DNA from: a virus | Length of the DNA: 15,158 nt | Virus genome (UHGV): UHGV-1773351 | Reading direction: 5' to 3' (one strand) | Shown: piece by piece, positions 1 to 14,942 of the stretch | How the letters are laid out: every line of letters starts with the position of its first letter | How positions within the stretch are numbered: position 1 is the stretch's first letter | Position numbers and translations under genes: made by a program | Notes under the pieces: model-generated | The model's input: the letters and a program-made list of their open reading frames with translations, nothing else | Told to the model about the DNA's origin: nothing | Database searches by the model: none

Positions 1-95
1 AAATAAGTCCAGTCTGGTGCGGCCAGATCACCCGCCGTTAGCTCCACGAAACGGAGCACGTAAAAGGTAAGAGCATTCTCCTGTAACGGGTTCAT
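1..95 (-). CDS. hypothetical protein, N-terminal part only (gene runs off the window start)
   Basis: My own translation of the minus strand: ATG at complement of 93-95, then MNPLQENALTFYVLRFVELTAGDLAAPDWTY with no stop before the window edge. In-frame stop upstream at complement of 183-185. No strong Shine-Dalgarno. Not in the ORF track because it is truncated. Confidence 0.3.
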   Translation of the reverse strand, partial: MNPLQENALTFYVLRFVELTAGDLAAPDWTY

Positions 96-286
96 ATCCC
101 AATCTACAGGTCCACCAAGAATGCTCTTTCCGTTGCGGTGAATGCGGCTAAGCGCACGCGGGGAAATGGTTATATCTGTCCATTATTTCTCCTTGTTTCC
201 ACGTCCACGGTGGATAACCAGCCAAAGGACACCGGGAGGAACCCGGCACCGCAGCTTTTTTATTCGTTAAATAATGGAGTGAGAGG

Positions 287-523
287 ATGCAGAACAATCC
301 GAACAAATGTCGAACGCTATGGGTGCGGTTATATATTTATGCCGTCCTCTGTTTGATTGTGTCACTGGTTCTGTATGTTTGGCTTTTGCCAAATATGATC
401 TCATCTAACAGCACAATACTTGTATTGTTGGGAGTCCTTCTCGCGCTCATTTACCCGGCTTTCGCAGTAGTCTTTTTTCGTGAAAAAACCAGGAAATTAA
501 TTAATGAAAAAAACGTTGATTAG
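287..523 (+). CDS. small membrane protein (78 aa, two hydrophobic helices), probable partner of the downstream SPFH lipoprotein
   Basis: ORF with GGAG 7 nt upstream of ATG 287. Two hydrophobic stretches (YIYAVLCLIVSLVLYVWLL and ILVLLGVLLALIYPAFAVVFF). 3' end overlaps the next gene by 20 nt, suggesting coupling. Confidence 0.4.
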   Translation: MQNNPNKCRTLWVRLYIYAVLCLIVSLVLYVWLLPNMISSNSTILVLLGVLLALIYPAFAVVFFREKTRKLINEKNVD

Positions 524-1331
524 TGCAGCGATTATTTTGGGTTCTTTATGTCTGACCGGATGCGATCGGGTAGAGCCAGGTAACGTAGGGATCAAAGTAA
601 ATAAGCTGGGGGATGATAAAGGTATCGGTGAAGTAGTTGGCGTTGGTCGCTACTGGACAGGCTTGAATACTGAAGTTTATATCTTCCCGACCTTTAAGCA
701 AATGAAGACATACGATGAGCCGTTCAGCTTCCAGATGAGCGACGGAACAACCATTGGTTACCACATCGGCGTAGCCTACAAGGTTGATCCAGCAAAAGTC
801 ACAACGGTATTTCAGACCTATCGCAAAGGTGTAGATGATATTACTGATACCGATCTACGCCAGAAGGTTGCAGATGCTCTGAACCGATTAGCCAGCAAAA
901 TGACCACCGACAAATTTATCGACGGTGGCAAATCTGAATTGCTTGATGCAGCCCTTAAAGACATTCAGGAAGAAATGACGCCAATCGGCATTCAGGTGAT
1001 GAGCCTCTCTTATGTAGGTAAGCCAGAATACCCGCCAACAGTTATTGACAGTATTAACGCCAAAGTCACGGCAAACCAAAAAACCCTGCAACGCGAGCAA
1101 GAGGTCAAACAACGTGAAGCAGAGGCCAACATGCTGCGCGCGGAAGCTGCCGGACAGGCTGATGCTATTCGCACAAAAGCCCAGGCCGAAGCTGATGCCA
1201 TTCGTTTACGTGGTGAAGCTCTGCGCCAGAACCCCGGTGTTATGGACTTGGAAGCGATCAACAAATGGAACGGTACATTACCGCAGTATATGACCAGTAA
1301 TACCGCTGTTCCGTTTGTTCCGGTGAAATAA
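504..1331 (+). CDS. SPFH/band-7 (HflK/C-flotillin-like) family lipoprotein
   Basis: Signal peptide with lipobox (MKKTLISAAIILGSLCLTGC). AGGAA upstream of the ATG. Central SPFH-like region followed by an Ala/Glu/Arg-rich coiled coil (EAEANMLRAEAAGQADAIRTKAQAEADAIRLRGEA). Confidence 0.75.
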   Translation: MKKTLISAAIILGSLCLTGCDRVEPGNVGIKVNKLGDDKGIGEVVGVGRYWTGLNTEVYIFPTFKQMKTYDEPFSFQMSDGTTIGYHIGVAYKVDPAKVTTVFQTYRKGVDDITDTDLRQKVADALNRLASKMTTDKFIDGGKSELLDAALKDIQEEMTPIGIQVMSLSYVGKPEYPPTVIDSINAKVTANQKTLQREQEVKQREAEANMLRAEAAGQADAIRTKAQAEADAIRLRGEALRQNPGVMDLEAINKWNGTLPQYMTSNTAVPFVPVK

Positions 1332-1358
1332 AAGCGTAAGCAAAATTGGCAGTAATCC

Positions 1359-1434
1359 GGCCCTTTAGCTCAGTGGTTAGAGCTGGCGACTCATAATCGC
1401 ACGGTCACCGGTTCAAGTCCGGTAGGGGCCACCA
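1359..1434 (+). tRNA. tRNA with CAU anticodon; overall closest to tRNA-Ile2 (lysidine type, ileX-like), not elongator or initiator tRNA-Met
   Basis: 76-nt cloverleaf folded by hand: 7-bp acceptor stem GGCCCTT/AGGGGCC (one G-U), D arm GCTC-AGTGGTTA-GAGC, anticodon loop CTCATAA (CAT at 1392-1394), T arm ACCGG-TTCAAGT-CCGGT, encoded CCA. D-loop, C4/C5 acceptor pairs and anticodon stem GGCGA match the E. coli ileX pattern as I recall it. Confidence 0.85.
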
Positions 1435-1714
1435 TATTTGGTTGTAACACGGCGTCTGGCACATGCGTCGTTAGCGGTCTGGTGACGTTAAAGGGGTAAC
1501 CTTTCCCCTAGCTCAGGCAACAAACCAGGTAGCCGGAATGTGCAAGCCCCGTTCATAGCGTCGGACTGCGGATTCACCATCTTGGCGATTCGGTGTGACA
1601 GCCGGGAAGAGTCCGGCGAATTAATCCTGATTTTCTGGTGATGACTCATATCGTTAGGAGTGATTTGAGTATGGCGATTATATCTGACATTCAGCACGCC
1701 TGGGTGGAGTGCTA

Positions 1715-3079
1715 ATGTCTGCATCCCCTCTTGAATCCATGCCAAATTCCCTTAGTGCAGAACAAGCTGTACTTGGTGGCTTAATGCTTGATAACTGCCG
1801 CTGGGATGAAGTTGCAGATCGTATAGTTGCTGATGATTTTTATACCAGTGCTCATCGTGAAATTTTCAGTGAGATGGAGAGGTTATTAAGTCATGGCAAA
1901 CCGATTGATTTGATAACACTTGCTGAAGCACTTGAACAGAACGGTAAATTAGAACGCGCCGGTGGTTTTGCGTACCTTGCGGAGATGTCAAAGAACACGC
2001 CCAGCGCGGCAAATATTTGTGCTTATGCGGATATCGTTCGTGAACGCGCGGTTGTTCGTGAAATGATTTCCGTCGCAAATGAAATAGCCGAAGCTGGATA
2101 TGCGCAGGATGGCAGGGGCAGCAATGAATTGCTGGATATGGCCGAGCGCCGCGTTTTTGAAATAGCTGAAAAACGACAAAAGAGCGGTAGTGGTCCAAAA
2201 GATATCGCCAGCATTCTCGATGCAACGGTATCTCGCATAGAAGAGTTGTTTCAGCGACCGCATGATGGTGTAACGGGGCTTGATACCGGATTTACCGATC
2301 TCAATAAGAAGACGGCAGGACTTCAGGCGTCCGATCTCATTATTGTCGCCGCCCGCCCATCGATGGGGAAGACTACGTTTGCGATGAATCTCGTCGAAAA
2401 TGCCGCAGTCCGTAACGATAAGCCCGTATTGGTTTTTAGCCTTGAGATGCCGAGCCACCAGCTGATGATGCGCTCACTGGCTTCTCTTGCACGCGTTGAT
2501 CAGACTCGTATTCGAACAGGGCAACTTAACGACGAGGATTGGGCGCGGGTTTCTGGCGCAATGGGGATTCTGTTGGACAAGCAGAATATTTTTATTGATG
2601 ACTCAAGCGCCCTGACACCTACAGAGCTTCGTTCCCGCGCTCGTCGTGTTTATAAAGAAAATGGTGGTTTGAGCATGATTATGATCGACTACCTGCAACT
2701 TATGCGCGTCCCCGAGCTGCAAGATAACCGAACGCTGGAAATTGCCGAGATTTCTCGCTCACTGAAGGCTTTGGCGAAGGAATTACAAGTACCGGTGGTG
2801 GCATTGTCACAACTTAATCGATCGCTTGAACAGCGTGCGGACAAACGACCGGTAAATTCAGATTTACGTGAATCAGGAGCAATTGAGCAGGACGCAGACC
2901 TGATCATGTTTCTGTATCGCGACGAAGTTTATCACCCGGATAGCGAAATGAAGGGCATTGCCGAGGTGATTATCGGTAAGCAACGAAATGGCCCAATTGG
3001 CACGGTGAGATTGGCTTTTAACGGCCAATACTCACGGTTTGATAACTATGCTGGTGCTGACTGGCAAGAGGATTATTAA
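1715..3079 (+). CDS. dnaB: DnaB-family replicative DNA helicase (phage-borne paralog, P1 Ban-like)
   Basis: Near-collinear similarity to E. coli DnaB over the whole length, including the Walker A segment AARPSMGKTTFAMNLVENAA and LRESGAIEQDADLIMFLYRDEVYH. ATG 1715 has GGAG 5 nt upstream; an in-frame GTG at 1709 is the ORF-track start. Confidence 0.93.
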   Translation: MSASPLESMPNSLSAEQAVLGGLMLDNCRWDEVADRIVADDFYTSAHREIFSEMERLLSHGKPIDLITLAEALEQNGKLERAGGFAYLAEMSKNTPSAANICAYADIVRERAVVREMISVANEIAEAGYAQDGRGSNELLDMAERRVFEIAEKRQKSGSGPKDIASILDATVSRIEELFQRPHDGVTGLDTGFTDLNKKTAGLQASDLIIVAARPSMGKTTFAMNLVENAAVRNDKPVLVFSLEMPSHQLMMRSLASLARVDQTRIRTGQLNDEDWARVSGAMGILLDKQNIFIDDSSALTPTELRSRARRVYKENGGLSMIMIDYLQLMRVPELQDNRTLEIAEISRSLKALAKELQVPVVALSQLNRSLEQRADKRPVNSDLRESGAIEQDADLIMFLYRDEVYHPDSEMKGIAEVIIGKQRNGPIGTVRLAFNGQYSRFDNYAGADWQEDY

Positions 3080-4077
3080 TGCAATGGAATGAGGAAAAGC
3101 CGATGAACATCCTGATCATTGGGCGAAAATTTGAAGCTATCAGTGATGTGAAAACATATACGGAAATGTGGGCTTACAACCTGGCCTGCGCCTTTAGTGA
3201 GGCTGGGGTAACATTGCAATACCATCGTCCATATTCCCCCGGCGTCGAAAGCCCGGAGGATTATGTTGAAGCTGTGTTGACTGCTGCGACCGCATGTTCT
3301 GCGAAGGCCATTTTGGCACCAGGATTGAGGTATTTTACTACGGTGCCCAGGGAAATAGGCGTGCAACTGCGTCGTCGATTCACTGGATGGGTAGCCCAGG
3401 TATACGACGGTTCTATGCTGGATTCGGCACCAGTCGATATTACTTTTACTGTCCGCGATGATACCTGGCGGTACCTGGATAATCCAGGCAGGTTAGAGCG
3501 TCATAATCGCTTTAACAAACATGTTGGATGGGCAGCGAATCAGGATCTGTTCCATCTGGAAACCAAAACAGACGATGTTCTGCGTATTTTTGTAGACCAC
3601 GCTGCATTTGATGTTAGTGGGTTTGATCACTCCTTAAGTATCCTTATGAACCTTCAGCGTCTGACCGTTCCGTATGAGGCCAGAACGTTGACCGATGACG
3701 GATTGATTACCATTGATCCGGGGAATATATCGGTAACCCCATACAGACGGACGCCGGTACCAGCAACCGAATTTGCAGCTGAATTGCGTAAGAGTGACGT
3801 GTTTATCGTTACGCATCCCGAAAGCCTTGGATTAACTGTACTTGAGGCGGCAATGTGCGGGGCGTTGGTATTAACGCCTCCCGATTGCCTTCCGCCAGAT
3901 CGCTTGGCTTTGGTGAACCATATGGTTATCAAGTCGCGGATTGATTGGGATGAGGTTATTGCTCGCGTTGATCGCGTGAAAAATGCTGAAAAGGTCCAGT
4001 GTCACACCTGGTCGGCAATTGCGGAAAAGATGCTTGAGACGTTTATCACGCAGAAACCGTCGTGCGGTAACGGATAA
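3079..4077 (+). CDS. GT-B fold (GT4-like) glycosyltransferase-like protein, in the position of P1 dbn
   Basis: ATG 3079 overlaps the helicase stop (TAATG). Alternative ATG 3103 has an ideal GAGGA 7 nt upstream and gives an N-terminus MNILIIG typical of GT-B enzymes. C-terminal motif HPESLGLTVLEAAMCGALVLTP matches the E-x7-E motif of GT4-type transferases. Confidence 0.6.
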   Translation: MQWNEEKPMNILIIGRKFEAISDVKTYTEMWAYNLACAFSEAGVTLQYHRPYSPGVESPEDYVEAVLTAATACSAKAILAPGLRYFTTVPREIGVQLRRRFTGWVAQVYDGSMLDSAPVDITFTVRDDTWRYLDNPGRLERHNRFNKHVGWAANQDLFHLETKTDDVLRIFVDHAAFDVSGFDHSLSILMNLQRLTVPYEARTLTDDGLITIDPGNISVTPYRRTPVPATEFAAELRKSDVFIVTHPESLGLTVLEAAMCGALVLTPPDCLPPDRLALVNHMVIKSRIDWDEVIARVDRVKNAEKVQCHTWSAIAEKMLETFITQKPSCGNG

Positions 4078-4100
4078 AAAATTGAACCCGTCATAACAGA

Positions 4101-4121
4101 AAAGCCCGAACGCCGGGCTTT
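4101..4121. terminator. bidirectional rho-independent terminator between convergent genes
   Basis: 8-bp stem AAAGCCCG/CGGGCTTT with loop AACGC, T-rich on both sides (TTTCTT on plus, TTTCTGTT on minus). Lies between the plus-gene stop (4077) and the minus-gene stop (4124). Confidence 0.7.
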
Positions 4122-4123
4122 TC

Positions 4124-7234
<3,111 letters not shown>

Positions 7235-8452
7235 TTATCCTTTCCGTTTACGGGCTTCGTTAATTTGTGTCTCAAGAATGCTTCGCGCCTGCGCGGTGGC
7301 AGCGGCCTTGTCCATTCCCTGACTCATGAAAAACTTTATGAGGTTGTTCGCCTGCGTTTGCAGGGCTTTTTTGAGAGCGTCGGCTTCAGCGCGAGCTTGG
7401 GCTTCCCTCACCCGCGATGCTTTTAGTTCGGCATTCTTCCTGTTTGCCGTGGTGCGAGCTTTTTTTAACAACCGGCGAACGTTGTCCGTGGCGCTATCTT
7501 TGGCGCGTAGTTTTTTGCCTAATGCATCCTGAGATTTCAGATATAACTCATACTCACGCGCCGCTTTAGCCTGATCCGTCGTTGTTGTCCGGTTGCGCGC
7601 GAGTGATTTAGCCAGTTCGCCTTTGAAATAGGTTGTTGTCTTCCGCTTGTCATCGCCGAAGGCCACCTGTTCAGCTGCTTTTTCCAGGGCAATAATGATG
7701 GCCTTGTGCCATGTGGGAGACTGAAAACGCGTCATAGCGTGCAATACATGTTTGCAGGCTACACCAGTCAGATCAGGGTTGCGGATCTTGGGGAATGCAT
7801 ACTCTTTTGGCGGCGCGACAGCATAGTTACCAGCCGTGGCCATATAACGATACCAGTATTGATGGCGTCCACAATCACAGTCGAAAGATACCCGGCCCTT
7901 GCAGAGATCGGCAGCGATTCGGGCTTTTTTCGCACCGTCTTCAGCAATTTCCTCAACGGCTTTATCCCATTCCTCAAATCGAATTCTGACACGATGATGC
8001 TGGTGGACCGACTCATCCGAGGCATTAACAGATATCAATGCAAGGTTGTGTTTTAGCCCGAGGAATGTCGCGGCTTTGATCCCTGTGCCATCAGAAACTT
8101 TGTTGTTAGCGCGTTTTATATCAATGCTGGTGGACTGCGCCACCAGCTGAGCATAGGTAATGCCGGGTACCGTGCTCTTGAATTTGGTTTTATGAGCCTG
8201 CCTTGAGGTGTTGAAACTGCGTATATCTTCGGGCGTAAAGTAGGTGCCATCTTTCTTTTTCCCAAGGCTGAGGAATGCCTCAAGTTCGCGGTTACGCATC
8301 CCCATAATCTTTGGGGTGAGTGTACGCCGCGCGTTTCGCCGATTCTGACGCTGCTGTTTACGGATAAGATCGAAGACCTTGTTAAAGTCTTTTGCACTTA
8401 ATCCATCGGTCTGATAGCGACCAAGGTTGTCGCGAGCATATTTAGTTGGCAT
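7235..8452 (-). CDS. basic, coiled-coil-rich protein with a SWIM-like zinc-finger motif (405 aa)
   Basis: AAGGGA 5-6 nt upstream of the ATG. Lys/Arg-rich N- and C-terminal regions. Central FDCDCGRHQYWY ... VACKHVLHA gives a CxC-xn-CxH arrangement. Confidence 0.7.
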   Translation of the reverse strand: MPTKYARDNLGRYQTDGLSAKDFNKVFDLIRKQQRQNRRNARRTLTPKIMGMRNRELEAFLSLGKKKDGTYFTPEDIRSFNTSRQAHKTKFKSTVPGITYAQLVAQSTSIDIKRANNKVSDGTGIKAATFLGLKHNLALISVNASDESVHQHHRVRIRFEEWDKAVEEIAEDGAKKARIAADLCKGRVSFDCDCGRHQYWYRYMATAGNYAVAPPKEYAFPKIRNPDLTGVACKHVLHAMTRFQSPTWHKAIIIALEKAAEQVAFGDDKRKTTTYFKGELAKSLARNRTTTTDQAKAAREYELYLKSQDALGKKLRAKDSATDNVRRLLKKARTTANRKNAELKASRVREAQARAEADALKKALQTQANNLIKFFMSQGMDKAAATAQARSILETQINEARKRKG

Positions 8453-8461
8453 TCAATTCCC

Positions 8462-8839
8462 TTACGCAATGGATAATGTCCCTATTACCTGGCCGTCATA
8501 TTGGAAATGGCGAATCATTTCGCGGATCCAGGTGGCAGGTGGGAGTTTTAATTTTTTGCCAACAGTCATACCCTGAAACTCATCCTCAAGCCCGGCGGCG
8601 AGCGTCACAACCCATCGTAGCTCTGCTATGCCCCACATACGGTAAGCCAGCAAATCCGGGCGATATTGCTCATCGGGAAGAACGTAATAAATCGTCAGAT
8701 TCTTGTCGTTCGATTCACACATAAGCATCACCTCTTTGCGCAGCTCTGCCCTGAGTATTGGATCGGCTATGTTGCGGTCGTCATACCGCGACAGAGGATA
8801 TTGCCGGGTGCTTTGGGTTGTAGTGATTGATGTAGCCAT
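8462..8839 (-). CDS. hypothetical protein (125 aa), first gene of the leftward operon; possible LysM-like fold
   Basis: ORF with ATG at complement of 8837-8839. The segment YYVLPDEQYRPDLLAYRMWGIAELRWVVTLAAGLEDEFQGMTVGKKLKLP loosely resembles LysM / tail-X-type domains. Confidence 0.6.
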   Translation of the reverse strand: MATSITTTQSTRQYPLSRYDDRNIADPILRAELRKEVMLMCESNDKNLTIYYVLPDEQYRPDLLAYRMWGIAELRWVVTLAAGLEDEFQGMTVGKKLKLPPATWIREMIRHFQYDGQVIGTLSIA

Positions 8840-8912
8840 AGTCAGCCTGCCAGAAATATATGATGGTGATTCTACTGCTAGTCATTTGTTGAATATTTAA
8901 CTTAATAAAAGA

Positions 8913-8929
8913 AAATTATTAGTGCAATT
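8913..8929 (-). promoter_or_regulatory. C1-operator-like 17-mer (ATTGCACTAATAATTTT on the minus strand) in the divergent control region
   Basis: 15 of 17 matches to the recalled P1 C1 operator consensus. Lies between the divergent operons starting at 8839 (minus) and 8986 (plus). Confidence 0.4.
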
Positions 8930-8985
8930 CACATTGTGAAATGTATCATTCTGCCATTAAGTAGGTTCTTCACGAGGAAACAAAA

Positions 8986-9231
8986 TTGGCAGAACGTGTT
9001 GATGATGCAGAGCTGAGCATGAATCAGTTAGAAGCTCTCAAAGACATGGCCATCGATAACATCAGAAAGCAGGCACAGGTCGTGAGCCAGGTATTTACAG
9101 GGAAGTGTCGTTACTGCAATGAATCGATTGAATCAGGCATTTATTGTGACGCTGAATGTGCGCAATGGCACAGGGAAGAGCAGGCCGCAAAACAGCGTAA
9201 ATATGGCATGCGACCGGCAGGATTTGACTGA
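8986..9231 (+). CDS. small C4 zinc-ribbon protein (DksA/TraR-like cysteine arrangement) with an N-terminal helical segment
   Basis: TTG start with GAGGA 7 nt upstream; an internal ATG (MNQLEALK) is an alternative. Cysteine motif CRYCNESIESGIYCDAEC. Confidence 0.6.
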   Translation: MAERVDDAELSMNQLEALKDMAIDNIRKQAQVVSQVFTGKCRYCNESIESGIYCDAECAQWHREEQAAKQRKYGMRPAGFD

Positions 9232-9233
9232 TT

Positions 9234-9812
9234 ATGTTGCGCTTTACTGAGGAAGAGTTTCAGGCTTTTAGTGAGCGTCGAAATAAGGGGCGGTCCAGGC
9301 CAAAAACCAAAAAGGATCCATTCTTATCGCTTGCGCCGGTAAAAGAAGTTTCTCCACATGCGAAGGCACTTGCAGCACTGGCAAAGAACCCAGACCTGCG
9401 CGACGGAAATTGCGAGCACTTCGAGCAGGTTTTCATTTTTGATTACTTCGAACGCAAGCACCCTGACATCTATGAGCTGTTGCATGCAACGCCTAACGGA
9501 GGGAAACGTTCAAAAGCAACCGCCGGGAAAATGAAGGCTGAAGGGCAGAAAAAAGGTTATCCGGACATGAGTCTCGATAAAGCATGCGGTATTTATCACG
9601 GCATGCGAATTGAGCTTAAAGAACCAAATGGTAAAGCCCCGACGAAAGAGCAGATCGCCTGGATGCGCAGGCTTAGAGAGGAAGGTTACTACGTCGTTCT
9701 TGCGTATGGTGCAGAACAAGCGATAACCGCCATCCTGGAATACATGAGCCTTAAAAAGGGTGAGGCTATTGAGCATGTATTGAACGGTGACAAGTGTTTG
9801 TACGCTACGTGA
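9234..9812 (+). CDS. VRR-NUC domain nuclease (PD-(D/E)xK superfamily)
   Basis: C-terminal region GYPDMSLDKACGIYHGMRIELKEPNGKAPTKEQIAWMRRLREEGYYVVLAYG matches the VRR-NUC pattern (Asp, then E-x-K, then a helix and beta strand). Start lies 2 nt after the previous stop. Confidence 0.7.
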   Translation: MLRFTEEEFQAFSERRNKGRSRPKTKKDPFLSLAPVKEVSPHAKALAALAKNPDLRDGNCEHFEQVFIFDYFERKHPDIYELLHATPNGGKRSKATAGKMKAEGQKKGYPDMSLDKACGIYHGMRIELKEPNGKAPTKEQIAWMRRLREEGYYVVLAYGAEQAITAILEYMSLKKGEAIEHVLNGDKCLYAT

Positions 9813-9879
9813 AATAATAAATTAATTAGTGCATATGTGTATCTTTGATACAGCGCACATTAACATCGGGAGAATAATC

Positions 9880-10035
9880 GTGTCATCCAAGGCTAATTAT
9901 GAATCGCTGGCATCGATCATGCCGCGTAATGAACAGGAAGCAGATGCTGTAGTGGACCCGGTAATCGCTGAAATGAATGCTCGCCTGGAGGCTGAATTTG
10001 CAGCTGAGAATGAACATACCACCCAGGGCGACTAG
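9880..10035 (+). CDS. small hypothetical protein (about 51 aa from GTG 9880)
   Basis: GGGAGA 7 nt upstream of GTG 9880. The ORF-track start at 9829 is a GTG with no Shine-Dalgarno in an AT-rich spacer. Confidence 0.35.
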   Translation: MSSKANYESLASIMPRNEQEADAVVDPVIAEMNARLEAEFAAENEHTTQGD

Positions 10036-10639
10036 GACTGTTTTTTGTGTCGGTAGCGGTCCGTCACTCACTCGTGAGGACTGTGCTGCTATAGAAAAAA
10101 CTGGCTGTTCAATCATCGCGGTTAACAATTCCTGGCAGATGTTCGATGACATTTATGCCTTATACGCCGGTGATTTGTCATGGTGGAAGCAATACGGATC
10201 CACCATACCGGGAGGGAGATTCCGCAAAGTGACAGCCAACCTGGCGGCGGCGAAATCATTTTCGTTGGAGTACAGGCGATATTGTGGACCGGCTGAAGGG
10301 GTTAATAGCGGCGCGCAGGCTATCAGTCTGGCGGCTGAATCAGGGGCTGAAGTAGTTGTATTAGTCGGCTATGACTGTTCTCTGCAAAACGGCCTTCATT
10401 GGCATGGAGCACACCCTCAAGCACTACGGAATCCAACGCAGGTGTCTATTTCAAAATGGCAACAGCAGTTCCTGGATACCCGCAAAAAACACGCAGATTT
10501 ACATATTTTGAATGCAAGTAGGAGCAGTGCAATTCAATGTTTCCCAAGAATAAATTTAGAGGCAGTGATCGCGTTATTATCGTCGGCAGTGGCCCAAGCG
10601 CCGCAAACTTTGTTGCGCCGCGCGGAGTGCCGATTATAG
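10010..10639 (+). CDS. GT42/DUF115-like (Cst-II sialyltransferase / Maf / MptE-like) putative CMP-sugar transferase, paralog A
   Basis: N-terminal VFCVGSGPSL, then IIAVNNSWQMFDD and NSGAQAISLAAESGAEVVVLVGYD, collinear with Cst-II motifs as I recall them. Start chosen at ATG 10010 to give the same N-terminal length as paralog B; the ORF-track start is 9977. Confidence 0.5.
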   Translation: MNIPPRATRTVFCVGSGPSLTREDCAAIEKTGCSIIAVNNSWQMFDDIYALYAGDLSWWKQYGSTIPGGRFRKVTANLAAAKSFSLEYRRYCGPAEGVNSGAQAISLAAESGAEVVVLVGYDCSLQNGLHWHGAHPQALRNPTQVSISKWQQQFLDTRKKHADLHILNASRSSAIQCFPRINLEAVIALLSSAVAQAPQTLLRRAECRL

Positions 10640-11163
10640 CGGTCAATGGGGCCATAGACTGGCTTAACCGCGCTTCTTATTTTTTCACCCTTGATCCATC
10701 GCCAGACAATATGCGGCGCGTTGGTCGTGGCCGCCGTCGCCGTGGTGTTTGTTATTGCATGGCGCTACCCGATGTTAAAGAACGTGAGGTCAGAGACGGC
10801 GTTCTGTGCTTCCGTCGTGTGGCTGAGCGCGGCACGGAGCCAAAAAATACGAATTCTCCCGAGTGGTGGGCGTGGCGCTGGTCCGCACATTTCGGCCTTT
10901 GCGAAGATGAGAATGAAATTGCCAGCGGCAATAGTGCATATGGTGCTCTGAACCTGGCTTTCCATATCGGATTCAAACATGTCGCCCTGGTGGGCGTTGA
11001 CGCTACACAAGAACCACGCGTTCACTCCGGCGGCACGCCAAAAAATCTAAGTCACCTGCCTTTGTTATTCCAGTCTGCGCGTGAACAGATTGACGTTGTT
11101 TCATGCGGGAAAATGGGAGGTATTCCGCAGATGACTCTTAAAGAATGGCTGAAGAATACATGA
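10537..11163 (+). CDS. GT42/DUF115-like putative CMP-sugar transferase, paralog B
   Basis: [21 protein letters not shown] and [24 protein letters not shown] parallel paralog A. AGGAG lies about 12 nt upstream of the ATG. Overlaps paralog A by 103 nt in another frame. Confidence 0.55.
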
Positions 11164-11837
11164 TGGCACCAACAATTTATCACCGTATCGACGGTACCAA
11201 ATACAGGAATATCTGGGTTGTTGGTGATCTGCATGGTTGCTACAACAGACTGATGTCCGAACTCCATCGTGTGGATTTTGACCCGGCGCAGGATTTACTG
11301 ATATCGGTCGGCGACCTTATCGATCGCGGTACTGAAAATGTCGAATGTCTGGAACTATTGCAGATGCCCTGGTTCAGGGCAGTGATGGGGAACCATGAGC
11401 GGCTGATGATTGATGCGTTAAGTCCAGATGGCAACGTGAATAACTGGCTAATGAATGGCGGACAATGGTTCTTCATGCTGGACACTGATCAGGAAATATT
11501 AGCTAGGGCGCTGGTGGAGCTGGTAAAGCGTCTGCCCTATATCATTGAGTTGAACACCGGGCAAGAAACTATCGTTATAGCCCATGCCGACTATCCGGAT
11601 AATGAATACCAATTCGGTAAGGAGGTGCCGCTTTTCAACGTTGTCTGGGCGCGCGAGCGTATCAGTGATTCGATGGATGATATTGGTGGCGAAATTTCGG
11701 GCGCAGATCGTTTTATCTTTGGTCACACTCCGGTGAAAAGCCCGAAGACATTCTGGAATCAGCATTATATCGATACTGGTGCCGTATTTTGCGGAAACCT
11801 GACATTGATGAAAGTGAAAGGTGATGGTGCAGCATGA
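11145..11837 (+). CDS. Ser/Thr protein phosphatase, lambda PPase (PPP) family
   Basis: Canonical PPP motifs GDLHGCY, GDLIDRG and GNHE, plus near-collinear similarity to lambda phosphatase ([12 protein letters not shown] ... [13 protein letters not shown]). ATG 11160 overlaps the upstream stop in an ATGA arrangement and is an equally plausible start. Confidence 0.85.
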
Positions 11838-12535
11838 AGATTGCTTTAGTTCTTCGCTCTGGTGGTGACTATAACGCTTCCGATGTGCAGTGGCTGGTTA
11901 ATCAACTGCCAAAAGGCTATGAAATTATTTGCCTGACAGACCTGAAGCGTTTACATGTACCTGGCGTCAAAGTTGTCCCATTGATCAACCAGTGGCAAAA
12001 GTGCCGTGGCTGGTGGGCGAAAATCGAGTTGTTCCGACCGGATATAACCGATGATCTGTTCTATCTGGATTTGGACACGGTTATTGCCGGTGATATACGC
12101 CCAATCCTTGAGAATCCACCAACCAGCTTCACCATGCTTAGGGATTTTTACCATCCACAATATCGTGGTAGCGGTGCCCTGTGGATACCAAATAGTGTAA
12201 AAGCGCATATCTGGAGTTCATTCTGGCAAGATCCGGAAGGTTGGATTGCTCGTTGTGTTACTACTGAATGCTGGGGTGATCAGGGGTTTTTGCGGAAGGT
12301 TATGGGTGATGATACACCAGCATTTCAGGATCTGTATCCGGGATGGTTTGTAAGTTACAAGGCCGATGTTGTGGAACCTGGTTCGAAATATGCGAGCGCG
12401 CGTTACTCCAGGGGGAATGGGGCATTACCAAAAGACTGCCGAATAATCTTTTTCCACGGCAAACCGCGACCTCGCGAAGTGTCAGAGGATTGGCTTCCCC
12501 TTATTAGCTCGTTTTTTGAGCGAGAATCAGAATAA
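11834..12535 (+). CDS. hypothetical protein, possible GT-A fold nucleotide-sugar transferase (DxD-like motif)
   Basis: ATG overlaps the phosphatase stop (ATGA). The motif [19 protein letters not shown] resembles the DxD region of GT-A transferases; this is a motif-level guess only. Confidence 0.55.
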
Positions 12536-12536
12536 T

Positions 12537-12553
12537 ATTGCTCTAATAATTCC
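12537..12553 (+). promoter_or_regulatory. C1-operator-like 17-mer (ATTGCTCTAATAATTCC) overlapping a sigma70-like promoter
   Basis: 14 of 17 matches to the recalled consensus. Part of a conserved 30-bp module (ATTGCTCTAATAA-N6-ATTTTTAAAAC) repeated at 14678; within it TTGCTC and TAAAAC are spaced 17 nt apart. Confidence 0.45.
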
Positions 12554-12561
12554 ATATTTTT

Positions 12562-12591
12562 AAAACGTGATGTACACTCATCACGTTTTTT
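12562..12591 (+). terminator. rho-independent terminator after the 11834-12535 gene
   Basis: 11-bp perfect stem AAAACGTGATG/CATCACGTTTT with loop TACACT, followed by a T6 run. Confidence 0.7.
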
Positions 12592-12602
12592 ATTAGAGCA
12601 AT
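12586..12602 (-). promoter_or_regulatory. C1-operator-like 17-mer in inverted orientation (ATTGCTCTAATAAAAAA on the minus strand)
   Basis: 14 of 17 matches. Inverted partner of the 12537-12553 site, giving a roughly 66-bp palindromic unit around the terminator hairpin. Confidence 0.4.
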
Positions 12603-12616
12603 CTATAAGGTGCACT

Positions 12617-12835
12617 ATGTGGCCATTCCGACGGAAATATCACTACTGGCTGATCGCCTTTGTTACGCCGACCGGCGGTATCAGGCATGTCATCACCAGG
12701 TATCGCAACAAGAGACTCTCCTTAGCCAGAATTTTACAGGCTGCCATAGGTGAGGGACTGGATACAAATTGCGTAGTCCTTCCACCTTCATATTTAGGAA
12801 AAATGACCGAAGCACAAGCTAATACGGAACTTTGA
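12617..12835 (+). CDS. small basic hypothetical protein (72 aa), possibly coupled to the downstream gene
   Basis: GGTG 5 nt upstream of the ATG. Its stop TGA lies 1 nt before ATG 12837. Composition is not strongly protein-like, so weak. Confidence 0.3.
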   Translation: MWPFRRKYHYWLIAFVTPTGGIRHVITRYRNKRLSLARILQAAIGEGLDTNCVVLPPSYLGKMTEAQANTEL

Positions 12836-12836
12836 A

Positions 12837-14099
12837 ATGAGCACTTCAGCACAAAACCAATCAATCGAAAATGTATCTATCCCTGACGTCCTTAATGCCG
12901 GTATCCCGGCCATTATCCAGAACATCCGGGCCGCGCAACGCCGCGTTAGTTGTGATGACCTCACAGCACGTTTTTTTGATAATGCGGTTCAGTCAGCGGA
13001 GATGCTTCACGCACAGCTTATTGATGTTTATAACGCAGAAGCTGATAGCCATAACTCCCTGGTAGATGCAGCTGAAAATATGCAGTTGGATCTCGGTCTG
13101 AAGGGTAAAGAAATTGAAGAGCTTCAGCTGCAAATTGAACATTTGAAACGCCAGCAACAGGACGCGATCGACGATGCGACGCATGACGCCAACCAGCGTG
13201 CTGATAATGCCGAACGTATAAGCATTGAGCTGGAAACAAAACTCAATGAAATGACCGCGATGGTTGAACTGCAGAACTCACAGATTTCAACGCTAAAATC
13301 TCAATATAAAGAGATCATGAAACTTGATCCTTTTAACCTTGAGAAACGCTATAACAAAGCTAAAAGCGAGCGACAGGAACTGCGTAAGCAGGTCGCCGAC
13401 CTTAACCAACAGCTCAAAAAAACTATTAAAGATGCAAGCGAAGCGCGCGTGGCATTTGCTAATAAAAAAGCAGAGGTTACCGCGCTGGTTAATGAGAATG
13501 CCAAATTTACGACGCTCAAGAAGGAAATGTATGGCATTACTGAGCGCCGTTTCCCTGCAAGCAAACTTCATCCGACGTTAGGGCAAATCTCCTTCTTCCC
13601 GCGCCTCTTGGCTTATGGGATCTCATCGCCTAAAGAGTTCAATAACGAGCGTCCTTATATCGTGTCTAAGCTGGACTTTGCTTATCAGTTCTGCTGCGAC
13701 ATGGGCTATGCCATTGATATCCGAATCAACGAATGGTTGATGCCAAACTTCCAGCCGTTGGCAATTTTCCGCGAGTTCCAGCCGGAAGGTTGGGTAGAGT
13801 TCTTCCATGAATTGATCTGTAAAGAGATGGAAAGCCGCCGCCCGGAATTGGTCCGTCGAGTTGAGTGGGCGCAAGAGGTTATGTTGGCAGATGCAGAGCT
13901 GCCGTTCGAACCGGAATTCATTGATGATCTGGCAACTAAAGGGTTGCATACCCTGTTTGATGTGGTTACCCGCCGTCATGAGCAGTTGGTTGTCGAATTG
14001 GGTTTAGAGGAAACAGCGGCAAGAAGACTTCTCGATGTTTGCTATGCACGTAGCGATGCATGGGAAAAAGAGAACGGAGGCACTATTTACGTCCGCTGA
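12837..14099 (+). CDS. hypothetical protein (420 aa): N-terminal coiled-coil plus C-terminal globular domain
   Basis: Long ORF. Residues ~60-230 are heptad-like and charged (EELQLQIEHLKRQQQDAIDD ... RQELRKQVADLNQQLKK). C-terminal 190 aa is aromatic/Cys-containing with no motif I recognise. Confidence 0.7.
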   Translation: MSTSAQNQSIENVSIPDVLNAGIPAIIQNIRAAQRRVSCDDLTARFFDNAVQSAEMLHAQLIDVYNAEADSHNSLVDAAENMQLDLGLKGKEIEELQLQIEHLKRQQQDAIDDATHDANQRADNAERISIELETKLNEMTAMVELQNSQISTLKSQYKEIMKLDPFNLEKRYNKAKSERQELRKQVADLNQQLKKTIKDASEARVAFANKKAEVTALVNENAKFTTLKKEMYGITERRFPASKLHPTLGQISFFPRLLAYGISSPKEFNNERPYIVSKLDFAYQFCCDMGYAIDIRINEWLMPNFQPLAIFREFQPEGWVEFFHELICKEMESRRPELVRRVEWAQEVMLADAELPFEPEFIDDLATKGLHTLFDVVTRRHEQLVVELGLEETAARRLLDVCYARSDAWEKENGGTIYVR

Positions 14100-14118
14100 T
14101 AGTTACAGTGTCACTTTT

Positions 14119-14152
14119 AATGCTGGTGGAGTGCGCCCACCAGCATTTTTTT
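14119..14152 (+). terminator. rho-independent terminator after the 420-aa gene
   Basis: 11-bp stem AATGCTGGTGG/CCACCAGCATT with loop AGTGCGC, followed by a T7 run. Confidence 0.75.
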
Positions 14153-14171
14153 CGTCCAATGAGGAGGGCAT

Positions 14172-14678
14172 TTGAGTATTTTCAATAAACATGCACACCA
14201 GGAACGTCCGTATATCGTCATAGTCGATATTGATGGAACAATATCAAAGGCAACTGAAGACAGACTGCATTTGCTTCCGCCACCAGGTAAAGGTGCATTA
14301 ACAAAGGACTGGAACGAGTTTAATCTCGCCTGTGACACCGATACTCCCATCACTCCAGTTATTGATATGGTGCGCCAGTTATTTAACGTTTACACGGTCT
14401 GGTTTGTAACCGGGCGCTGTGAGATCGCAAGGGATAAAACACGAGCCTGGCTGCGGAAGTACGTAACAAACGGGGCTGAGCCTTTGCTATCTATGCGTCC
14501 TGCCACCGATGACAGAAATGACGGCCCAGCAAAGATTGATCTCCTTAAGAAAATTGGTCTAAGTAAAATCGCGTTCGCGCTGGAAGATAAGATTGAAGTG
14601 GCGCGTGTTTTCAGGAGGCACGGCGTGCTTACGTTAATGGTCAGGGAGTATGAAAATGCGCTTCTTCACCAACAATAA
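14172..14678 (+). CDS. HAD-superfamily phosphatase (DxDGT motif; resembles polynucleotide 3'-phosphatase / nucleotidase-type domains)
   Basis: TTG start with a strong GAGGAGG 5 nt upstream. Motif I IVIVDIDGT and motif II-like WFVTGRCE. Confidence 0.7.
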   Translation: MSIFNKHAHQERPYIVIVDIDGTISKATEDRLHLLPPPGKGALTKDWNEFNLACDTDTPITPVIDMVRQLFNVYTVWFVTGRCEIARDKTRAWLRKYVTNGAEPLLSMRPATDDRNDGPAKIDLLKKIGLSKIAFALEDKIEVARVFRRHGVLTLMVREYENALLHQQ

Positions 14679-14707
14679 TTGCTCTAATAAATCTTGATTT
14701 TTAAAAC
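14678..14707 (+). promoter_or_regulatory. C1-operator-like 17-mer (ATTGCTCTAATAAATCT) with overlapping sigma70-like promoter; second copy of the 30-bp module
   Basis: 16 of 17 matches to the recalled consensus. Same 30-bp module as at 12537 (13 + 11 identical positions, same spacing). Confidence 0.5.
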
Positions 14708-14776
14708 AGGGAAAGTGAAAATAAAAACATGCCGCAAGGCGCGGCATGTATCCAATCAATCACAGGAGCTGAAAAT

Positions 14777-14863
14777 ATGAACACGGCATTCAAAATCATT
14801 ATGGCCGCGATCTATTTCTGGCTGTTCTCTATCACTTTTGGCGGCATCGTCGCTCATGGGTAA
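14777..14863 (+). CDS. small hydrophobic peptide (28 aa, MNTAFKIIMAAIYFWLFSITFGGIVAHG), single predicted transmembrane helix
   Basis: AGGAG 8 nt upstream of the ATG. Sits downstream of the operator/promoter module and a perfect 8-bp hairpin (14728-14748). Too short for the ORF track; found by reading the sequence. Confidence 0.4.
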   Translation: MNTAFKIIMAAIYFWLFSITFGGIVAHG

Positions 14864-14942
14864 GGGGAGTATATTAGCCATTTGGAACCCCACGGTCTCT
14901 TGCGGGTTTAATTAAGAACCCGCAAGAAAAACACGAATTGGG

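Follow-up and report, generated by a model that had tools for sequence, protein, structure and literature searches.

trnI, a very probable tRNA-Ile2 gene, and an adjacent conserved structured element in the ban operon of a P1-like phage-plasmid

A tRNA gene with the anticodon CAU lies between a lipoprotein gene and a helicase gene in a 15,158-nucleotide stretch of viral DNA (UHGV-1773351), the whole of which is referred to here as the window. The locus raises two questions: whether this gene encodes a methionine tRNA or a lysidine-dependent tRNA-Ile2 that decodes AUA, and what role such a gene plays inside a protein-coding operon. The window belongs to a P1-like phage-plasmid. It is 98.4% identical to RCS47 over positions 1..14867 and about 98% identical to P1, P7, SJ46 and others across 90-98% of its length, and its gene order is given in Table 1. 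The closest relative with full context is pE2865-1, which shows 99.6% identity over the first 1800 bases of the window. When Ban was compared with phages by tblastn, no intermediate P1-like lineages were found beyond host-like DnaB. The baseplate gene 5 (4124..4720, minus strand) carries an in-frame deletion of 12 amino acids relative to P1 gp5 (ASGQGEGYVPPE, between two VPPE repeats), and its open reading frame is otherwise intact.

Table 1. Genes and other features of the window (positions counted from its first base)
Feature	Position	Strand	Remarks
upl (partial)	first in the window	-	followed by the variable cassette, the tRNA gene, ban and dbn
Variable cassette	262..1349	+	1088 bp; fixed junctions at 261/262 and 1349/1350; the P1 slot holds tciA-tciB-tciC, 716 bp
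78-aa membrane ORF	287..523	+	20-nt overlap with the SPFH gene; no annotation in the two records inspected (RCS47, pE2865-1)
SPFH/Band-7 lipoprotein gene	504..1331	+	Band_7 match with E = 1e-30; lipobox
9-nt 5' leader, CAGTAATCC	1350..1358	+	common to all cassette types
tRNA gene trnI, very probably tRNA-Ile2	1359..1434	+	76 nt; anticodon CAT; encoded CCA; from ARAGORN, Rfam and identity with P1 trnI
Conserved structured non-coding element	1445..1628 (conservation from 1435)	+	about 180-185 nt; candidate put-like leader RNA; unannotated in the records inspected
ban	1715..3079	+	DnaB-type replicative helicase; same operon, 3' of the tRNA gene
dbn	3079..4077	+	possible glycosyltransferase; end gene of the plus-strand unit
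Genes 5, 6, 24, 7, 25 and 26 (tail/baseplate)	after dbn	-	
pmgL to pmgS, ppp and pap	after the tail/baseplate block	+	

The first-pass annotation had placed a phage-borne tRNA gene with a CAU anticodon at 1359-1434, and two programs agree on it. ARAGORN reports a single tRNA in the window, at 1359..1434 on the plus strand, with the anticodon CAT from position 34 and the isotype label 'Met', and the Rfam tRNA model RF00005 matches 1359..1431 with 64.7 bits (gathering score 29, E = 2e-12). The canonical cloverleaf with the anticodon CAU that belongs to a tRNA-Ile2 is present. The trnI gene of P1 (AF234172, 70933..71008; NC_005856) is 100% identical to the window tRNA over 76 nt, and the P1 GenBank record describes it as 'tRNA-ile2 (CAT) gene; 89 pct identical to ileX'. 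The gene in the window is therefore already known. In both genomes it occupies the same slot of the ban operon, behind the variable cassette and ahead of ban, whereas the upstream cassette is tciABC in P1 and the membrane ORF with the SPFH lipoprotein gene in the window, and a 6-nt indel and several substitutions distinguish the two tRNA-ban spacers. It is very probable that this trnI gene of a P1-type phage-plasmid encodes a tRNA-Ile2. The gene itself is an ordinary accessory tRNA gene of existing records; the structured RNA adjacent to it is the only part that goes beyond them.

The transcription of trnI is best described from P1. The P1 record locates trnI within the ban operon, between Pban/Oban and ban. 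About 2.2 kb upstream are the divalent C1 operator Oban (formerly Op72) and the sigma-70 promoters P1ban and P2ban; next come, in this order, a dicF-like region, tRNA-Asn, tRNA-Thr, the antisense of plp/upl, the cassette, trnI and ban. The ban promoter is beyond the edge of the window. In pE2865-1, a perfect C1 operator pair is found 2.85 kb upstream of the tRNA. The C1 operator matches in the window are confined to 8912, 12537, 12586 and 14678, and neither a promoter-like site nor a C1 operator was found near the tRNA in the window. The first-pass annotation had noted that no terminator separates the lipoprotein gene, the tRNA and the helicase gene, and a simple consensus scan of the plus strand likewise detects no terminator-like site from 530 to 2038. 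A terminator-like hairpin at about 229..262 was judged weak by eye, with a stem of 5 bp and a T-run 9 nt off, and was discarded. The co-transcription that had been proposed as probable is in line with the P1 record, in which trnI and ban are both under the C1-controlled Pban/Oban, and a common transcript of cassette, trnI and ban is consistent with that annotation.

The trnI RNA would start far from its gene, as part of a long ban-operon transcript from the C1-repressed Pban, about 2.2-2.9 kb upstream and outside the window. Since Pban is repressed by C1, trnI RNA would be made upon derepression of the prophage. Host RNase P would then free the 5' end of the tRNA from the polycistronic transcript, and 3' end-processing enzymes would mature the other end, whose CCA is already encoded. 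The plus strand of pE2865-1 carries, at 313..345 of the extracted locus and outside the window, a strong terminator-like hairpin about 170 nt past the C1 operator pair and before the tRNA genes and ban; a dicF-like region is annotated in P1 at a similar offset after Oban. RNA polymerase starting at Pban would therefore have to read through this hairpin to reach trnI and ban, which counts against the proposed transcription. The sets of upstream tRNA genes vary: Asn and Thr in P1 and RCS47, Asn, Tyr and Thr in pE2865-1 (809..1055 of the same locus), and Asn, Thr and Ser(UGA) in phage D6 (1810..2515 of the D6 locus).

The sequence upstream of trnI is the most changeable part of the neighbourhood. 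The cassette slot corresponds to 'variable region 7' of P1-like phage-plasmids (PMC9603915), and 9 nt separate its right junction from the tRNA. The gene that had been called a lipoprotein gene is acceptable under that name, as it encodes an SPFH/Band-7 protein with a lipobox. Cassettes were surveyed in 80 IMG/VR loci whose Ban proteins are 99-100% identical, a set of near relatives that is uninformative for distant comparison. The SPFH cassette (1088 bp) is present in 31 loci, the P1 tciABC cassette (716 bp) in 17, and two TerB-like variants of 725 bp and 729 bp in 16 and 10 loci, respectively. One further locus contains an SPFH cassette of 3047 bp with an insertion of the IS21 family, the family being deduced from ORFs of 340 and 260 amino acids. 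Rfam also gives a hit below threshold to the sRNA STnc100, with 38 bits (gathering score 47, E = 3e-6) over model positions 31-147 of 206. This hit is located at 134..253 on the plus strand, in the conserved intergenic region between upl and the cassette, and ends near the left cassette junction.

The tRNA is retained next to these cassettes. It is present in 79 of the 80 IMG/VR loci, with 63 copies identical to that of the window, and it has been kept beside four different upstream cassettes and in the more distant phage D6. The single locus that lacks the tRNA (IMG/VR UViG_3300045988_115882; Ban 99% identical) has a spacer reduced to its last 36 nt. The D6 copy of this tRNA(CAU) gene (3501..3576 of the D6 locus) has C6 and, in the T-stem, a G52.A62 mismatch, and the D6 record leaves it unannotated. 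TerB-like genes precede it, and there is no ban downstream. A genome-wide CRISPRi screen of P1 scored trnI as non-essential, with plating at an efficiency of 1.4 upon knock-down (PMC10695390). Any benefit of trnI should therefore be conditional, small, quantitative or host-dependent.

The comparison with D6 also revealed what lies on the other side of the tRNA. D6 shares with the window only the tRNA and the 184 nt that follow it (window 1359..1618, 95.8% identity), with different flanks, and the conserved element was noticed for that reason. A blastn search of complete E. coli genomes with the spacer returned 2342 chromosomal places, none of them annotated. The prophage form of the element is present in 1375 of 5426 complete E. 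coli genomes and is located between a cI-like repressor gene and yfdP. Among phages, the element was detected in 82 records, which comprise the P1 family, D6, Stx2c phages, mEp460, Ayreon, Uetakevirus (phiV10, TL-2011b, SPN1S and Tyrion), Klebsiella phages and one Stenotrophomonas phage. An invariant 19-mer of the element was found at 24 loci in species-representative genomes, 22 of them in Enterobacterales and the other two in metagenome bins labelled Oscillospiraceae and Bacillota. The element in the tRNA-ban spacer has no match in Rfam 15 at E <= 1. A covariance model of the element (R1) detects exactly one copy per P1-type genome, that of the window at 1445..1628 with 191.9 bits, and no copy in 150 kb of the K-12 chromosome. 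A tRNA-Arg gene (1669..1742 of that locus) stands behind the element in one Klebsiella phage. A stretch of 33 bases inside the element (1465..1497) is 100% identical to a sequence in a CRISPR array of E. coli 2012C-4502 (NZ_CP027440), beside queE/ygcE.

The structure of the element emerged only through comparison with distant copies; the whole tRNA-ban spacer of the window folds no better than shuffled sequences (z = +0.32). The alignments contain long invariant stretches (UGGCACAUG, GGUAGCCGGAAUGUGCAAG, UGGCGAUUCGGUGUGAC and a GGAAGAG loop), and between them lie hairpins whose stems change by compensation. Five helices and a possible invariant pseudoknot are predicted, with changes on both sides in 9 of 34 pairs among 11 sequences from which the structure was itself derived. 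In a model-based alignment of 31 distinct sequences, which was fitted to that structure, both-side changes occur in 13 of 28 pairs, a number matched by none of 500 shuffles, and 90% of the cells are paired as compared with 32-48% when the partners are slid. The modelled fold is thus supported by covariation. Two candidate helices were rejected. One, predicted from five sequences, was a long-range pairing of ACAAACCAGGUA with the first 11 nt behind the tRNA; the 5' strand of this helix shows uncompensated variation when more sequences are aligned. The helix GCCGGA/UUCGGU shows uncompensated changes of U to A.

The position of the element in prophages resembles that of a known class of RNA. In the copies outside the P1 type, the element stands behind an early or moron promoter, a sigma-70-like sequence with operator-like palindromes 3-50 nt upstream, and takes the position that putL has in HK022. 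At one such locus the early-left promoter/operator region is identical to that of HK022 PL at about 40 of 47 bases, and the element occupies the place of putL, just downstream of the early-left promoter. The element also shares with HK022 putL and with the annotated putL-like RNA of HK639 the string CGGCG-N-CAUGCGUCG-NN-AGCG. In putL this string forms stem I and includes the essential U28, the residue that inserts into the zinc-binding domain of the RNA polymerase beta' subunit (PMC9378689). A put-type antiterminator RNA acts in cis to suppress terminators, and mutations in that domain block it. In other respects the two differ. The put RNAs of HK022 and HK639 are about 70 nt long with two stems, whereas the element is about 180 nt long with at least five helices. 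A put RNA stands directly behind its promoter, as do the prophage copies of the element behind an early promoter (of the HK022 PL type in one case), whereas in P1 and D6 it is the tRNA that precedes the element. The covariance model R1 has no match in HK022 or HK639, with which only the stem-I string is shared. Its size, its number of helices, the missing model match and the tRNA ahead of it in P1 and D6 speak against placing the element in the put family.

Our best guess is that the element acts in cis as a leader that alters transcription elongation, in the manner of a put-like antiterminator of expanded form, and that its 5' end in P1 would result from 3' processing of the tRNA. In its fullest form the proposal is tentative and may well prove wrong: trnI would be the first half of a conserved two-part module, and the element, as a new expanded put-type antiterminator leader acting on RNA polymerase and given its 5' end in P1 and D6 by tRNA processing, would let the ban-operon transcript reach ban and dbn.

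The same arrangement suggests a role of trnI itself that is mainly structural. The tRNA might be a processing signal at which RNase P and 3' trimming part the cassette mRNA from the downstream RNA and would also set the 5' ends of the conserved element and of the ban message, with AUA decoding as a by-product. The block of tRNA and 184 nt is the sole thing common to the P1-type phages and D6 here, the element is preceded by a promoter in prophages and by the tRNA without a promoter-like site in P1 and D6, and the dispensability of trnI in the knock-down screen would fit as well. We nevertheless consider this role unlikely as the main one. The determinants for TilS and IleRS are fully kept in trnI, its fold appears to be under compensatory selection, and the AUA usage of the phage is high, as described below. 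Processing and decoding are, moreover, not mutually exclusive, and the G52.A62 mismatch of the D6 tRNA would weaken either role.

The isotype of trnI was assessed by aligning the window tRNA in standard numbering with ileX, ileY, metT, metU and metV of K-12. The first-pass annotation had proposed that its acceptor stem, D-loop and anticodon stem resemble those of tRNA-Ile2 rather than tRNA-Met and had suggested a check of the TilS identity elements, and the alignment bears this out. The window tRNA differs from ileX and from ileY at 8 positions, from metT/metU at 22 and from metV at 32. By the distance criterion of Silva et al. (2006), under which a tRNA-Ile2 is nearer to the tRNA-Ile2 than to the tRNA-Met or tRNA-fMet of the same taxon, it groups with tRNA-Ile2. 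Both positive determinants of E. coli TilS, the acceptor-stem pairs C4-G69 and C5-G68 (PMC2500205, PMC1635315, PMC12514573), are present. The same is true of all determinants in a published list for bacterial IleRS (PMC9976931), namely A73, C4-G69, U12-A23, C29-G41, A37 and A38. With ileX and ileY the window tRNA shares 89.5% identity, the acceptor-stem pairs 1-5, the D arm with its 8-nt D-loop of the tRNA-Ile2 form, the anticodon loop and A73, and its anticodon-stem pairs 28-31/39-42 are identical to those of ileX. It differs from the two host genes in being phage-borne within a protein-coding operon and in having U26, C44, a U6.G67 wobble and a G27.A43 mismatch. The last of these stands at the top pair of the anticodon stem, where the host has G27.U43; it may affect recognition by TilS or IleRS and is counted against the tRNA-Ile2 reading. 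C6 is found in 10 of the 79 relatives and restores a C6-G67 pair. Four of the eight differences from ileX form two compensatory pair swaps in the T-stem (49-65 from G-C to A-U and 51-63 from U-A to C-G), which points to selection on the fold and not to decay.

An elongator tRNA-Met that reads AUG is a very unlikely alternative, although it is the reading to which the CAT anticodon and the ARAGORN label 'Met' lead. MetRS charges tRNA-Ile2(CAU) that is left unmodified, and such a tRNA reads AUG (PMC1635315); any unmodified fraction of trnI would act in this way as a methionine tRNA. The determinants exclude tRNA-Met as the identity of the gene. The pairs U4-A69 and A5-U68 of tRNA-Met, which are determinants for MetRS and antideterminants for TilS (PMC2500205, PMC1635315, PMC12514573), are absent, and two C-G pairs are in their place. 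None of the TmcA determinants C27-G43, C30-G40 and G44, which direct ac4C formation at C34 of tRNA-Met (PMC2500205), is found in the window tRNA (G27.A43, G30-C40 and C44 instead). An initiator tRNA (features from PMC1635315) is equally poorly matched: C1xA72 and A11-U24 are absent (G1-C72 and C11-G24 instead), as are the three G-C pairs at 29-31/39-41 of tRNA-fMet, for which the window tRNA has C29, G30 and A31. The count of 22 differences from metT/metU against 8 from ileX/ileY also speaks against a methionine tRNA, as does the label tRNA-Ile that RefSeq/PGAP assigns to 100%-identical copies on E. coli plasmids.

The prediction that a generic tRNA caller would label the gene Met holds for ARAGORN and for much of the public annotation. 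Twenty phage records that contain the gene at at least 98% identity were surveyed. Eight of them, including those of RCS47, Ro157c2YLVW, 813R1, JL22, 673R5 and a recent P1 record, have the label tRNA-Met, five (P1 and P7 records) have tRNA-Ile, and the gene is not annotated in seven. Labels are inconsistent for related genes as well. The ileZ gene of Stx-converting lambdoid phages encodes a phage-borne CAU tRNA of the Ile2 type with 85.5% identity to the window tRNA, and belongs to an ileZ-argN-argO group upstream of stx. The tRNA(CAU) genes of T4-like and other large phages are also of the Ile2 type and differ from trnI in sequence and genomic setting. Both groups are labelled Met, Ile or not at all. 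The inconsistent labels of trnI matter for counts of phage tRNA repertoires and for models of codon supply.

A tRNA-Ile2 would be of use to the phage if AUA codons are common in its genes. Codons were counted from the annotated CDS of the window, the whole of pE2865-1, 70 kb of P1 and 150 kb of the K-12 chromosome. AUA occurs 11.97 times per 1000 codons in the window (54/4513; 20% of Ile codons), 11.49 times in the complete P1-like plasmid pE2865-1 (309/26902) and 11.88 times in the P1 segment, as compared with 2.87 times in the K-12 sample (119/41516; 4.5% of Ile codons). The odds ratio of element to K-12 sample is about 4, with p from 5e-15 to 2.5e-43. The published genome-wide value for E. 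coli is 4.9 per 1000 codons (PMC12514573) and exceeds the 2.87 of the sample; the excess in the phage-plasmid is therefore 2.4- to 4-fold. The comparison of element with host suggested in the first-pass annotation thus comes out at 4-fold over the 150-kb sample and 2.4-fold over the genome-wide figure. Part of the excess is compositional, because the GC content of the element (46-48%) is lower than that of the K-12 sample (51-52%). AUA ranks second or third among the enriched codons, behind AGG and AGA, which are more enriched and yet have no tRNA-Arg carried by the phage. ACA, the codon of the phage tRNA-Thr(UGU), is 3.1-fold enriched.

Within the window, AUA codons are unevenly distributed. 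The five in-frame AUA codons that had been listed for the helicase gene (1823, 1913, 2084, 2162 and 2237) are all present and are the sole ones in ban, whose density of 11 per 1000 equals the mean of the element; ban is not especially AUA-rich. The densest genes are gene 5 (7 of 197 codons), gene 26 (4 of 124) and gene 7 (6 of 241), and the SPFH gene contains no AUA codon.

In the tRNA-Ile2 reading, which the determinants favour, host TilS would convert C34 of trnI into lysidine and host IleRS would charge the tRNA with isoleucine; both steps are predicted from the sequence determinants. AUA in E. coli is served by only two minor tRNA genes. The mature trnI would add decoding capacity for a codon that the phage uses about four times as often as host core genes, most densely in its tail and baseplate genes. 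That trnI instead acts as a spare tRNA of counter-defence, which would maintain the reading of AUA while the host tRNAs are depleted or cut by a nuclease of the host or of a competitor in the course of infection, is scarcely credible: phage tRNA sets are indeed lineage-variable (Asn and Thr, with Tyr added in pE2865-1 and Ser in D6) and the neighbouring P1 cassette is annotated as TerB-like, 'tellurite or colicin resistance', but the anticodon loop of trnI is the same as that of the host, so that trnI would be cleaved like the host tRNA, no tRNA-Ile2-specific nuclease is known to us, and PADLOC assigns no defence family to the cassette proteins.

Of trnI and the element next to it, the element would be the more important. 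It has so far been left without annotation in the records inspected. Should it prove to be an antiterminator or some other leader that acts in cis, it would rank among the widespread regulatory parts of the temperate phages of enterobacteria, Stx2c phages and P1-type resistance plasmids among them.
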